From assembly GCA_023205875.1 (NCBI GenBank), contig CP060759.1, positions 1 to 64,000 of the forward strand: DNA of 64,000 nt. Direction: 5' to 3'. Below the pieces are notes generated by a model. It had not been told where the DNA came from. It did no database searches and saw nothing but the letters and a program-made list of their open reading frames with translations. How positions within the stretch are numbered: the stretch's first letter is position 1; each line of letters opens with the position of its first letter. The DNA comes from Chloropicon primus (Eukaryota). A program made the position numbers and the translations under genes. Positions 1 to 8,274 of this stretch are shown piece by piece.

Positions 1-213
1 AGGCCTAAGGCCTAAGGCCTGAAAGGCCTAAGGCCTAAAGCCTAGGCCTAGGCCTGGGCCTACCTAAAGCCTAAAAGCCTAAGCCTGGGCCTAAAACCTA
101 AAACCTAAAACCTAAACCTAAACCTAAAACCTAAAACCTAAACCTAACAACCTAAACCTAACAACCTAACAACCTAACAACCTAACAACCTACAAACCTA
201 CAAGCCTAAACCT
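1..213 (+). repeat. Telomeric repeat tract (CCTAAAA / CCTAAA core with degenerate variants such as AGGCCTA and CCTAACAA)
   Basis: Tandem C-rich CCTAAAA units at about 89-150, flanked by variant units; located at the very start of the window. Confidence 0.85.
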
Positions 214-215
214 AT

Positions 216-1108
216 GGAAGGACGACCTGGCCAAGGAAAGGAGCCGGAGAACAAAAGGAGCCTAGGACAAACACACCGTCGCATCATCCAAGCTTTCCGT
301 GGTGCCTCCGAGTAACCGCGTTTCCTAAAGCCTTGGGAGTCCTAAAACCTAACGCCTAAAAGGCCCTCTCGTGGGTCCGAAGTGCCTTGAGTAGAGTTTG
401 CCCGAGGAAGAAAGGAAGGACGACTTGGCCAAGGAAAGGAGCCGGAGAACAAAAGAAGCCTAAGAGAAAGACACCGTCGCATCATCCAAGCTTTCCATGG
501 TGCCTCCGAGTAACCGCGTTTCCTAAAGCCTTGGGAGTCCTAAAACCTAACGCCTAAAAGGCCCTCTCGTGGGTCCGAAGTGCCTTGAGTAGGGTTTGCT
601 CGAGGAAGAAAGGAAGGACGACCTGGCCAAGGAAAGGAGCCGGAGAACAAAAGAAGCCTAAGTGAAAGACACCGTCGCATCATCCAACCTTTCCGTGGTG
701 CCTCCGAGTCACCGCGTTTCCTAAAGCCTTGGGAGTCCTAAAACCTAACGCCTAAAAGGCCCTCTCGTGGGTCCGAAGTGTCTTGAGTAGGGTTTGCCCG
801 AGGAAGAAAGGAAGGAAGTCCTGGCCAAGGAAAGGAGCCCGAGGACAACAGAAGCCTGGGAGAAAGACACCGTCGCATCATCCAAGCTTTCCGTGGTGCA
901 TCCAAGCCACCGCGTTTCCTAAAGCCTTGGGAGTCCTAAAAACTAACGCCTAAAAGGCCCTCTCGTGGGTCCGAAGTGCCTTGAGTAGGGTTTGTCCGAG
1001 GAAGGAAGGAAGGACGACCTGGCCAAGGAAAGGAGCCGGAGAACAAAAGAAGCCTAAGTGAAAGACACCGTGGCATCATCCAACCTTTCCGTGGTGCCTC
1101 CCAGCCAC
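216..1108. repeat. Subtelomeric tandem satellite, 198-bp unit, about 4.5 copies
   Basis: The GACGACCTGGCCAAGG-like motif recurs at 221, 419, 617, 815 and 1013 (period 198); full units contain CCTAAAACCTAACGCCTAAAA or a 1-nt variant. Confidence 0.95.
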
Positions 1109-3135: not shown

Positions 3136-4142
3136 ATGAACCAAAACAACAACAACAACAACAACAACACGAAGACGAAGACGGCGGCTGGTGGTGGTGG
3201 TGCGGGGGACAAGAAACGTGCACCCGGGGGTAGGGCCGAGGACGAGGACAAAAACACGGCTGCTGCTGCTGCTGCACTGGAGTTGGAGAGGGAGGAGAAG
3301 AGGAAGAAGATGCAACCGCCGAAGAAGAGACTGTATCGGACGAGGGCGCACAGCAATCCCCTGAACGACCAGTCGTTCAAAGTTCCTAGGCACCCATCCG
3401 AGGTGAACTGGGCGGAGCACTTTCCTGCGGTGGCGAAGAACCCCGAGGCCAAGCTCGAGGTCGAGAACGTGGATGTCGGCTGCGGCTTCGGTGGGTATCT
3501 GCTCAAGCTCGGGGAAGTGTACCCCGACCAACTGAGCCTGGGGCTGGAGCTCAGGGACAAGGTGACCGAGTACGTGGCAGATAGGATCACCGCGCTGAGG
3601 GCCGAGGAGGGGGGGGAGGGGGGGGAGGGGAAGGAGGGGTGCACGTACGAGAACGTCGCCGTGCTCAGGGCGAACGCCCAGAAGGACCTCCCCCACTACT
3701 TCAGGAAGGGGCAGCTGAGGCGGATGTTCTTCCTGTTCCCTGACCCGCACTTCAAGGCGTCGAACCACCGAAGGAGGATCATCAGCGAGCAGCTTCTCGA
3801 CGAGTACGCCCACTTCATCCGCAGCGGCGGCAGGCTTTACACCATCACCGACGTCGAGGAGCTCGGGGCCTGGATGAAGAGCCACCTGGACGCCCACCCT
3901 TTGTTCGAGCGGGTGGGGGACGAGGAGCTGGACGGGGGCGGGGACGAGGCCGCCAAGTTCCTGCCGTCCGCATCGGAGGAGGCCCAAAAGGTGAAAAGGA
4001 ACGAGGGAAAGGTACGTTTTGCTTGTTGCGTTGTGGAGAAAGGGAGGGATTCTCGTTTCTCTCCGCCGACTGGTCGACTGACACGCTTGGCTTCTCCTTT
4101 TTCTTTTCCCAGACTTACCGGTCCGTGTACAGGAGGCGGTAG
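3136..4142 (+). CDS. TRM8: tRNA (guanine-N7)-methyltransferase catalytic subunit; intron 4012-4112
   Basis: YRTRAHSNP, DVGCGFGG, LGLELR and FLFPDPHFK motifs; a GTACGT...CTGAC...CAG intron gives the C-terminus NEGK-TYRSVYRRR*. Confidence 0.93.
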
Positions 4143-4564
4143 AGGTTTGGGGTTCGTTCCCAAAGGAGTGGAGCAGTGCGGAAGGGGTCCGCGTCTTTAG
4201 CGTTGAGGAGGATCGAGGGTCCATGCAATGCAATGTAATGTTTTGGTTCCTTATTTATAAGTTATCTATTCTTCCTCTTGGTCTTGGTCTTGGTCTTGGT
4301 CTCCCTCCTCGTTGTCGTTGTCGTCCTCGCTCTTGTTGTCCCTCGTTCGTTCGTTCCCCCTGGCCGGGATTGTCCTTCCCCCTTGGAGGAGAGGCCCCGC
4401 CCGAGCAGGAGGAGGACGACGAGGACGACGAGGGCGAGGAGGACGACGAGGGGGACACCCGCACAACACAACACACACAACAACACACGACACACGACAC
4501 ACGGAAGACGGGGACGAGACGAACAAAAACAAAAACACCGGAAGAGGGAGACGTCGTCGATGAG

Positions 4565-5907: not shown

Positions 5908-6891
5908 TCAGAAGGGGATCTCCTCCTGGTTCCCGCCCCTGTGCTGGCTCGGCGGCGGCGGCCCGCCCCCGCCCTGCTGCTGCTGGGTGAACAGGGAGTT
6001 GATGTCCACCTGCTTGTTCATGTCGAGCTCCTTGAGGGAGGAGGCGACCCAGGCGGGCGTCCCCCTGCTCTCGATCCAGAGGGCCTCGCCGGTCTCCTTG
6101 TGCTTGAAGTCCGGGGCCCTGGGGTTCTTCTTGGTCGCCCTGTTGTCCCAAAAGTCGCCCGGGGAGCAGAACAGCGCGGCCCACCGGCCCTCGAGGTCCT
6201 TGCTGGCCACGGCCCCGCCGCCCCTCCCCCCGGAGGGCGAGTACTTCCCCCCCAAGCCCCCCTGGAAGGAGTCGAAGCCTCCGTCCCCTCCCCCCTGGGC
6301 CCCGCCCGCGACCAGGGCCACGCGGTTGCACACCACCCTGACCTTCTCCTTCTTCTGCCCGGTCATCTTGTCCCTCCAGGTGTTCTGGGTCAGTCGGCCC
6401 TGGACCTGGACCTGCTGCCCCTTCCGGCAGTTGTCCGCCACGAGCCTGGCGTCCTCGTCCCAAAAGTCGAGCTCGAACCAGTGGGCGCTCTGGTTCTTCC
6501 CCCTCGAGACCGCGAGGCTCACGTTCGCGGTCACCTTGCCGTTCTCCAGGTACTTGACCTCCGGCTCCCTGCCGAGCCTCCCGATCAGCGTCACCGCGTT
6601 GGCGTTCTCCGCCTGCCACTCCACCTCCTCCAGCCCCGACGAGGGCGAGGAGGACGCGTTGTACGCGCGGAGGCCCAGGCCCAGGGGGGCGGACCGAGAC
6701 CGAGACCGAGACCCTGCCTTGCTGGCTTTGCCGTTCAGGTGCGGGTTCAGGTGGATACCAGCAGCAAAGGGGGTGACCCTGGAGAGGGGACCACCCAGGC
6801 TCCTCGCAAACGTCAACGCAGTCCTCGAGGCCTGGTGCGTCTTCATGGTCCCACTGGTCTTGAGCCAAACCCTCATCAAGTGCATGTGCAT
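5908..6891 (-). CDS. Organellar single-stranded DNA-binding protein (OSB-like: SSB OB-fold plus PDF motif)
   Basis: Transit-peptide-like N-terminus; NAVTLIGRLGREPE and GQQVQVQGRL (SSB); WDNRATKKNPRAPDFKHKETGEALW (PDF motif); ends in EEIPF. Confidence 0.88.
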   Translation of the reverse strand: MHMHLMRVWLKTSGTMKTHQASRTALTFARSLGGPLSRVTPFAAGIHLNPHLNGKASKAGSRSRSRSAPLGLGLRAYNASSSPSSGLEEVEWQAENANAVTLIGRLGREPEVKYLENGKVTANVSLAVSRGKNQSAHWFELDFWDEDARLVADNCRKGQQVQVQGRLTQNTWRDKMTGQKKEKVRVVCNRVALVAGGAQGGGDGGFDSFQGGLGGKYSPSGGRGGGAVASKDLEGRWAALFCSPGDFWDNRATKKNPRAPDFKHKETGEALWIESRGTPAWVASSLKELDMNKQVDINSLFTQQQQGGGGPPPPSQHRGGNQEEIPF

Positions 6892-7003
6892 GGAGCAATC
6901 CCGCTCAAGCCGAGAGGAGTGCGTTGGTTTCGGGCCAGGAAACGTGGCGAGACCGCGGCACGCGAGGTAAGGCTAAAGGTTTAGGGTCTAAACCTAAACA
7001 AAC

Positions 7004-7014
7004 AAAAAAAAAAA
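7004..7014 (-). terminator. RNA polymerase III oligo-T terminator of the permuted tRNA
   Basis: T11 run on the minus strand, 10 nt after the 5' half. Confidence 0.75.
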
Positions 7015-7024
7015 GATCGTCTGA

Positions 7025-7112
7025 TGCGAAGCGAGCGCTCTACCATATGAGCTACAACCCCGTCGTCTCTTGCTGTTGGAGTTGGAGAGAATCGAACTCC
7101 CTGCCTCTCGCA
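7025..7112 (-). tRNA. Circularly permuted tRNA-Ala(CGC): 3' half (nt 38-73) at 7112-7077, 15-nt spacer, 5' half (nt 1-37) at 7061-7025
   Basis: The minus strand reads TGCGAGAGGCAGGGAGTTCGATTCTCTCCAACTCCA-acagcaagagacgac-GGGGTTGTAGCTCATATGGTAGAGCGCTCGCTTCGCA. The reordered halves form a 73-nt cloverleaf with G3:U70 and A73. Confidence 0.92.
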
Positions 7113-7317
7113 TGTACACTGTGACGTCACTCACCAAAAAACTTCTGGTGCTGACATTTACGGGCTTTCATCCCTTATGTATCCCTGGCCCGCGAAAACA
7201 CGGTCAAAGAGGGGCCGCGCTCTTCTCTCGCTCTCTCCCAAAGTACCTCGTGCTACAATAAAAATGCCAATCATAACTCATCCTCTCTCCATTTCAATTC
7301 CTCTCTCTCGCTCTCTC

Positions 7318-8274
7318 TCAGCGATTCCCCTGCTGCTGCAGCAGCCTCTGCCTCGCCTTCTCGAACTCCTCCTCCGTGGGCTCCGCGCCCCCCTTCTTCT
7401 TCCCCTTCCTCGACTTCTTGTTGCTCTTTTTCTCCTTGTCGCTCCCGTACTTGTCCTCCAGGCTCCCCAGCAGGGACTCCATCCTGCCCCTCTGCTTGGC
7501 CCGGATCTGGAGGGCGAGGGAGTCCAGCCCCCCCGCGCCGGACCCCTTCTTCTTCTTCTTCTTCTTCTCCTGGTGGAGCTTGCCGATCTTCTTCGCCCTC
7601 GCCTTCTTGCTGCTCGCCCCCCCCTGCTTGCGCGCCCACCTCTCGAACCGGGTGCCGGGACCCCCGTGGTCCGCGACCTCCCCCGCCCCGACCGCCGCCC
7701 GGACGACCTCCAGGAACCTCGGGCCGTCCTCCGCCGGCCGGGAGCAAAGCACGTAGCAGAACACCTTGTCCATGTCCCCCTCGAACTCCCCGTAGTACCG
7801 CAGCAGGTCCGACCTCTCCTCCTCGCTGCCCCTGTACCTCTGCTCAAAGGCCTCGATGTCCTCCTCGGTCACCGGCGCGAAGACGGACCGGTAGTACCGG
7901 TACAGCTCGTCAAAGTCCTTGCCCGAGAGGTCGGTGCCCATGTCCCTGTCGAAGTCCAGGGAGCCCGTCTCGTCGTAATAAGCCCGCTTCTCCGGGTCGC
8001 TCAGCACGGAGAAGATGTGCTGGACCTGCTGGAACTTGGCCTTGGCCTCCTCCAGCAGAGCAGCTGCGTTGTTGTCGTCGTCGTCGTCGTTGTTGTTGTT
8101 GTTGTTTGCCTGGACCTTGTCCGGGTGCATCCTGAGCGCGAGCTTGTGGTAGGCCTTCCTGATCTCCTTGGCGCTGGCGTCGCTCTTCACCCCCAGCACT
8201 CCGTACGCGTCCACCCCTCCCCCTCCCCCTCCCCCTCCAGGCGACGAAGGCGGTGTCCCCATCTTCTTCCCCAT
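7318..8274 (-). CDS. J-domain protein (DNAJC9 / AtJ6-like)
   Basis: YGVLGV...YHKLALRMHPDK J-domain; VTEEDIEAFEQRYRGSEEERSDL; C-terminal EPTEEEFE. Confidence 0.9.
   Translation of the reverse strand: MGKKMGTPPSSPGGGGGGGGVDAYGVLGVKSDASAKEIRKAYHKLALRMHPDKVQANNNNNNDDDDDNNAAALLEEAKAKFQQVQHIFSVLSDPEKRAYYDETGSLDFDRDMGTDLSGKDFDELYRYYRSVFAPVTEEDIEAFEQRYRGSEEERSDLLRYYGEFEGDMDKVFCYVLCSRPAEDGPRFLEVVRAAVGAGEVADHGGPGTRFERWARKQGGASSKKARAKKIGKLHQEKKKKKKKGSGAGGLDSLALQIRAKQRGRMESLLGSLEDKYGSDKEKKSNKKSRKGKKKGGAEPTEEEFEKARQRLLQQQGNR

Follow-up and report, generated by a model that had tools for sequence, protein, structure and literature searches.

A probable circularly permuted tRNA-Ala(CGC) gene from the Chloropicon primus nuclear genome

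PERMUTED tRNA GENES AND THE CHLOROPICON LOCUS

Permuted tRNA genes have been published for Cyanidioschyzon, the Mamiellophyceae, Auxenochlorella, a nucleomorph, and an archaeon (PMC3978253, PMC12633428), with the Auxenochlorella genes having been added in 2025 (PMC12633428). Among the genes tabulated in 2014, most of those from green algae are type II, intervening sequences range from 1 to 74 nt, and the sole alanine entry is Ala(TGC) from C. merolae, with its junction at 59/60 (PMC3978253 Table 1).

Here, we describe a locus within the first 64,000 nucleotides of C. primus contig CP060759.1 (this whole stretch is called the window) that is very probably a nuclear, circularly permuted tRNA-Ala(CGC) gene. 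RNA polymerase III is likely to transcribe it, and the transcript likely passes through a circular form on its way to an ordinary tRNA that would read GCG codons. This kind of layout and its mechanism are already known; the Chloropicophyceae as a host class and Ala(CGC) as an anticodon are apparently new records among published permuted genes. The original prediction had listed Cyanidioschyzon, the Mamiellales, a nucleomorph, and an archaeon as hosts, all of which are published, but it had omitted Auxenochlorella (PMC12633428).

Mamiellophyceae genes from a 2010 study (via PMC3978253 Table 1) resemble the locus in the order of the halves, the junction in the anticodon loop, and the relaxed pairing at that junction. 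They are also alike in their short spacers (5 to 64 nt, compared with 15 nt in the window, which lies within the published range too), a CCA end that is not encoded, and a downstream T run (PMC3978253). However, the Mamiellophyceae rows hold only Ser, Leu, Cys, Arg, Asn, and iMet genes and no Ala gene, and the window comes from a different class, the Chloropicophyceae (PMC3978253).

Cyanidioschyzon, as described in a 2007 study (via PMC3978253), has the same layout, with six type II genes, and is the source of the circular-intermediate mechanism, but its only permuted alanine gene is the Ala(TGC) gene with the 59/60 junction (PMC3978253). Moreover, Cyanidioschyzon is reported to lack TFC1/TFC3 homologues (PMC3978253), whereas two TFIIIC subunits, GTF3C2 and TFC4, are found by KEGG label, alongside Brf1, among the C. 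primus entries listed in the PMC6731263 supplement. Auxenochlorella, of the Trebouxiophyceae, likewise has a small green-algal genome with reversed genes that tRNAscan-SE missed (PMC12633428, PMC12636532); it belongs to another class, however, and its example is tRNA-Pro(UGG) (PMC12636532 Fig. S1), though it may have an Ala(CGC) gene as well.

Two Chloropicon genome papers used tRNAscan-SE, and 46 tRNA genes are given for C. primus (including PMC6731263). The string "permut" does not occur in the main text of either paper, nor does "permuted" occur in the supplements searched (PMC6731263, PMC12301720). The Chloropicophyceae go unmentioned in the available parts of a 2026 review (PMC13578239) and of PlantRNA 2.0, and the available parts of PMC7678280 hold no per-species anticodon list for Chloropicon. 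The literature searched, which took in few subscription papers, contains no report of a permuted tRNA in the Chloropicophyceae, in agreement with the earlier suggestion that the gene may be unreported for this lineage.

With this locus, a picoalga of ecological importance whose genomes are complete gains a gene that tRNAscan-type annotation misses. The locus also fills a gap in the patchy green-algal distribution of permuted tRNAs, which bears on whether their origin was ancient or repeated and recent. Because several Chloropicon genomes have been published, the state of the orthologous locus (permuted, intron containing, or plain) is directly readable.

ARCHITECTURE OF THE LOCUS

On the minus strand, the locus is organized as a leader, tRNA positions 38 to 73, a 15-nt spacer, tRNA positions 1 to 37, a 10-nt trailer, and T11. 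The features, from upstream to downstream, are as follows.

8274-7318, minus: DnaJ (DNAJC9-like) gene, upstream neighbor; Pfam DnaJ and HTH_DNAJC9; 98.4% identical to C. primus QDZ21546.1
7160-7156, minus: TAAAT, a weak TATA-like candidate about 25 to 30 nt before the likely start; low confidence
7150-7132, minus: hairpin containing the T6 run (7141-7136); putative terminator
7135-7113, minus: putative leader of up to 23 nt, bounded by the upstream T6
7130-7121, minus: 10-bp DNA palindrome in the leader
7115, minus: A at leader position -3, able to pair with U32
7112-7077, minus: tRNA 3' half, positions 38 to 73 (36 nt); 3' strand of the anticodon stem, variable loop of 5 nt, T arm, 3' strand of the acceptor stem, and discriminator A73
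7097-7089, minus: B box within the tRNA 3' half
7076-7062, minus: intervening spacer of 15 nt that closes the acceptor stem; putative RNase Z/RNase P substrate
7061-7025, minus: tRNA 5' half, positions 1 to 37 (37 nt); acceptor 5' strand, D arm, and anticodon stem 5' strand
7054-7043, minus: A box within the D arm of the 5' half
7028-7026, minus: anticodon CGC
7024-7015, minus: trailer of 10 nt; putative 5' part of the split "intron"
7014-7004, minus: T11 run; likely RNA polymerase III terminator
6891-5908, minus: SSB gene, downstream neighbor; Pfam SSB; 99.7% identical to C. primus QDZ21545.1

When the halves are swapped, ARAGORN calls a 73-nt tRNA-Ala(cgc) with full pairing in the acceptor stem (7/7, including G3:U70), D stem (4/4), anticodon stem (5/5), and T stem (5/5) and with A73 present. 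G3:U70 and A73 are alanine identity elements, and tRNA positions are numbered in the usual way. The reordered sequence carries U8, G18G19, U33, and U54U55C56, as in a canonical eukaryotic tRNA, and its anticodon loop has the canonical 7 nt. CCA is absent from the gene, in which A73 is followed by ACA. The original prediction of a permuted tRNA-Ala(CGC) on the minus strand holds at every coordinate: the complete cloverleaf that it had described has its stems as written, with every pair intact, both of the alanine elements that it had named are in place, and joining 7061-7025 to 7112-7077, as it had proposed, produces a perfect tRNA-Ala(CGC) call in ARAGORN.

The spacer (7062-7076) and trailer (7015-7024) have the 6-mer AGACGA in common, perhaps by chance, and therefore each could pair with the leader palindrome.

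RECOGNITION BY SEQUENCE SCANS AND PERMUTED LOCI IN METAGENOMES

The prediction that standard tRNA scans would miss this gene proved correct: in native order, ARAGORN reports 0 tRNA genes in the 64-kb window, and Rfam reports 0 matches at the gathering score. Relaxing the Rfam E-value brings up just YrlA (25.9 bits) and tmRNA (9.5 bits). The tmRNA match and a native-order tRNA-Tyr* call seen at a lowered ARAGORN threshold were both rejected as partial matches to the same tRNA arms. The reordered call persists at 120% of the ARAGORN default score threshold and is lost at 125%.

A circular scan, in which sub-windows of 100, 130, and 170 nt were circularized and junction-spanning tRNAs were sought across the whole window, returned two regions. 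The permuted locus was recovered in 22 sub-windows, 15 of which were called Ala; the other region, a tRNA-Glu match at 1-100 in 2 sub-windows, is a telomere repeat artifact. Three shuffled windows gave 0, 3, and 0 sub-windows, and the recovery of the locus by the circular scan is not due to chance.

A search pattern consisting of a T arm, then a D arm and anticodon, and then T5 matches the permuted locus alone within the window. Applied to metagenome contigs, the same pattern found 81 loci, in 61 of which the upstream 3' half pairs with the downstream 5' half (at least 6/7 acceptor and at least 4/5 anticodon pairs), yielding 16 distinct mature sequences. Three of these (L050, L074, and L098) were left out as prokaryote looking. 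The 13 that were kept (Lys TTT, Lys CTT, and Tyr GTA, three each; Ala AGC and Ala CGC, two each) we judge from gene context to be eukaryotic, and, as seen with this one narrow pattern, type II permuted genes are frequent in marine eukaryote contigs. None of their anticodons is entered as type II in the 2014 table (PMC3978253).

Permuted Ala(CGC) genes occur at L026 and L081, with 56/73 and 52/73 positions equal to the window tRNA, and thus permuted Ala(CGC) is not peculiar to Chloropicon. Because their neighbors differ from SSB and DnaJ, these two loci are not recognizable orthologues, and no orthologue from another Chloropicon species was recognized among the 81 metagenome loci. For L026, the best hit carrying a name has 39% identity. 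The exact 5' half of the window tRNA is absent from viral contigs.

A covariance model, R1, was built from the 13 metagenome permuted loci, with the window excluded. Set against a low covariance score, which the original prediction had named as speaking against it, R1 scores the locus at 72.6 bits over 7112-7025 (E of about 1e-22 by rough calibration), part of which is built in because the R1 loci came from a pattern that also matches the window; the next score in the window is 9.0. Ordinary tandem tRNA arrays that match the search pattern reach at most 56.3 bits, and prokaryotic look-alikes reach up to 73.4 bits; R1 does not tell the latter apart from permuted tRNAs.

Over the set, 98.2% of positions expected to pair are paired, and 16/21 pairs have two-sided change, counts that characterize the set but lend no independent support, since they compare different tRNA species selected for pairing. 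The 15:48 cross-half tertiary pair is U:A, not purine:pyrimidine, jointly in the window tRNA and L026 and is G:C in the other 10 of 12 loci; this joint switch to U15/A48 from the usual G15:C48 counts in favor of a permuted gene.

Separately, in the permuted Lys(TTT) family (36 loci, including L022:2513-2598, L041, and L021), the junction carries terminal repeats that reach 7 nt, with the trailer repeating positions 38 to 41. L021, L022, and L025 have the same flanking genes and spacers of 33, 13, and 31 nt, respectively. This family is a good set in which to trace origin by duplication.

JUNCTION GEOMETRY AND LEADER-TRAILER PAIRING

The CA at the end of the leader and the U at the start of the trailer repeat tRNA positions 36 to 38 (CAU), and therefore cuts at 35/36, 36/37, 37/38, or 38/39 yield the same product. 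The original placement of the break exactly at 37/38 is thus compatible with the sequence, but the repeat makes all positions from 35/36 to 38/39 equivalent.

A relaxed bulge-helix-bulge had also been predicted, and the pairs that were named do exist: the canonical geometry has U32 paired with A(-3), U33 opposite U, C34 paired with G(-5), and G35 paired with U(-6). However, this arrangement is no better than chance at the window locus, where 12% of leader shuffles match its A-I pair plus 3/4 helix pairs, and it is not the predicted ground state. The fold favored by ViennaRNA is instead a shifted helix (35 to 37 and +1 with -4 to -7) plus an outer GACG/CGUC helix, at -31.5 kcal/mol versus -22.1 to -24.4 kcal/mol for the bulge-helix-bulge register, which is 7 to 9 kcal/mol less stable. 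The shifted helix overlies the 5' cut site, yet this fold retains the 3-nt 3' bulge; the bulge-helix-bulge pairs have probabilities of 0.00 to 0.11. The stability of leader-trailer pairing is equaled by 116 of 300 leader shuffles, and z-scores for folding of the whole precursor are unremarkable (0.41, -0.29, and -0.93).

The geometry emerges at the level of the class. For a set of 12 permuted loci, composed of the window and 11 metagenome loci (L021 and L025 were dropped as near relatives of L022), 31 of 48 cells are paired when positions 32 to 35 are set against leader positions -3 to -6, a count reached by 2 of 10,000 leader shuffles. Eight other registers have 16 to 23 of 48 cells paired. 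The 32:-3 pair alone is present at 7/12 loci (P = 0.035). As a fold, the register has a probability below 0.1 at 10 of the 11 other loci, and only L026 has a stable bulge-helix-bulge, in the strict form; a weak ground state is therefore usual for this class. The enrichment of the register fits 37/38 splicing geometry at the class level. It is also in keeping with the eukaryotic endonuclease, whose cut sites are measured from the mature domain with the help of an anticodon-intron pair (PMC3978253 section 8).

TRANSCRIPTION SIGNALS

The predicted T11 lies directly 3' of the trailer and is the only A/T run of at least 10 nt in the 64-kb window; an RNA-type contig from another study (X5) has T12 in its place. 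Because T6 at 7141-7136 would stop polymerase III transcripts begun further upstream, the leader is probably no longer than 23 nt. Upstream, A+T content is 47 to 57% in 30-nt blocks, and TAAAT is the sole TATA-like candidate at the spacing usual for polymerase III promoter elements; no convincing TATA box was found upstream of the locus. The leader palindrome, TGACGTCA, was considered as a shared promoter element and rejected, as its single copy in the window is what chance predicts (mean of 1.27). An upstream promoter is nonetheless probable because the B box precedes the A box, an order that makes the locus a natural test of polymerase III transcription.

FUNCTION, PROPOSED MATURATION, AND ORIGIN

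We consider it highly likely that a genuine type II permuted tRNA gene, and probably a working one, lies here. Function is likely because GCG accounts for a large share of alanine codons and because the processing enzymes are annotated in C. primus. Among 1,050 alanine codons in 25 long open reading frames (ORFs), picked mechanically and read as unspliced ORFs, there are 405 GCG, 401 GCC, 143 GCT, and 101 GCA codons. The C. primus annotation includes Sen2, Sen54, a second tRNA-splicing endonuclease, RtcB, RNase Z, and RPP30 (PMC6731263 supplement).

The maturation steps that we propose are modeled on the red- and green-algal pathway of Cyanidioschyzon and Ostreococcus (PMC3978253 sections 5 and 6). 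Polymerase III, probably directed by an upstream promoter, would start within some 23 nt upstream of 7112 and end in T11. The precursor would fold as a normal tRNA body, with the acceptor stem closed by the 15-nt spacer and the anticodon loop open. The tRNA splicing endonuclease, placed by the mature domain and U32:A(-3), could then excise leader and trailer like a single 37/38 intron, and a ligase (the annotation includes RtcB) would join position 37 to position 38, giving an 88-nt circle. Finally, RNase P and RNase Z would excise the spacer, and CCA would be added. Such a gene likely originated when an intron-containing gene was duplicated in tandem and the outer exons were then lost, which is the published model (PMC3978253 section 10).

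The weak junction pairing and the wrong order of the A and B boxes would also suit a silent relic, that is, a tandem tRNA-Ala duplicate that lost its outer halves and became a pseudogene, with a conventional gene elsewhere reading GCG; the anticodons of the 46 C. primus tRNA genes predicted by tRNAscan-SE could include Ala(CGC). Yet every stem is unbroken, both identity elements are intact, the terminator is placed directly after the 5' half, and the whole intergenic stretch is just 426 bp. We found no remnants of the outer exons (1,258 and 1,996 of 2,000 shuffles score as well), and, since decayed outer halves are absent, the rearrangement appears old, with inner halves that are nonetheless perfect. 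We therefore regard a relic as improbable and favor a functional permuted gene.

A broader proposal, which we advance tentatively and hold somewhat short of an even chance, is that this reversed gene is the sole Chloropicon tRNA for GCG, which is one of the two commonest alanine codons, and that it gives a first hint of a concealed permuted set in the Chloropicophyceae. Together with the Mamiellophyceae and Trebouxiophyceae, it might mean that permutation is a standing, recurrent trait among green algae with small genomes and among other marine picoeukaryotes, with an upstream promoter and with TFIIIC subunits still present.

RESEMBLANCE TO YrlA Y RNAs

Bacterial and phage YrlA Y RNAs (RF02553) also have a T arm before a D arm and an acceptor-like stem closed by a loop, and RNase P cleaves one of them, which also acquires CCA (PMC4201824). 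By analogy, the window locus could be a two-piece or hairpin-closed tRNA mimic that is expressed but never ligated for decoding, and its best native-order Rfam match is indeed YrlA (25.9 bits; E = 0.0027). Phage and bacterial loci of such a layout exist, one of them beside a TROVE gene. Nevertheless, the score is far from the RF02553 gathering cutoff of 69, with only model positions 23 to 85 of 114 being matched. YrlA RNAs are not decoding tRNAs and bind Ro60 via a conserved stem (PMC4201824), whereas neither GNCGAA nor TACTT(C/A) motifs occur within 6901-7200, and the neighboring genes are SSB and DnaJ of C. primus rather than Ro60/TROVE. Furthermore, the two halves together restore an anticodon loop of the canonical 7 nt, and the anticodon agrees with the alanine identity elements. 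A mimic is therefore very unlikely, and a decoding tRNA remains the preferred reading.

An upstream tRNA 3' half pairs with a 5' half lying downstream of it (acceptor, 6 to 7 of 7) at the phage and bacterial loci L002, L003, L011, L014, L017, L018, L019, L045, L050, L082, and L098, of which the first seven are viral loci from IMG/VR at about positions 270 to 430. TACTT(C/A) lies just upstream in 7/7 of the viral loci. The "anticodons" of these look-alikes are odd (TTA, TAA, and AAA), two of the loci hold two copies, and L082 adjoins the TROVE/Ro60 gene. Most match YrlA at 36 to 50 bits, against the cutoff of 69, and L011 and L017 have no match. Their features suggest divergent Y RNAs of the YrlA type more than decoding tRNAs.

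GENOMIC SETTING AND ASSEMBLY SUPPORT

The tRNA gene lies inside the 426-bp gap between the SSB and DnaJ coding regions, about 7 kb from a telomere-like repeat end. The next gene beyond these neighbors is 99.5% identical to a C. primus protein (QDZ21545-7 series, with chromosome 6 locus tags).

An assembly artifact, in which two halves of an ordinary gene were swapped, might be suspected from the unusual order itself, but it is scarcely credible and is largely refuted by a DNA-run contig (X1; 1,872 nt; depth, 150) with 0 differences and no joints over 6500-7637 and by the X5 contig (6500-7032), which passes from tRNA position 30 straight into the trailer and T run, as the permuted order predicts. 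The X1 match, which bears on the raw-read check proposed with the original prediction, speaks against a scaffolding error yet is not independent, because X1 may be the assembly's own source. No second X1 contig falls on the tRNA halves at 88% likeness, and depth is flat; other alanine tRNAs are equally absent from the filtered records. The heterozygous-site table gives, as a weak sign, no site between chromosome 6 positions 6508 (SSB) and 8096 (DnaJ) (PMC6731263).

RNA-type contigs X3, X5, and X6 reach 7014, 7032, and 6998, respectively, on the SSB side and extend down to 7233, 7267, and 7400 on the DnaJ side. They leave 7033-7196 uncovered; contigs of this kind cannot show absence and so are silent on expression. 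Given where these contigs end on the two sides, the SSB promoter probably lies in the same space as the tRNA gene.

Telomere-like repeats (TTAGG/TTTAGG), degenerate in their outer block, occupy window positions 1 to 260, and the window starts at a chromosome end. A telomere-like hairpin (TTTAGG ... CCTAAAC) is also present at 6972-6998, in the probable 5' untranslated region of the SSB gene, and resembles a telo-box. Three kilobases from the tRNA gene, and probably by coincidence, a gene for a tRNA m7G46 methyltransferase (Pfam Methyltransf_4) is found at 3136-4200.
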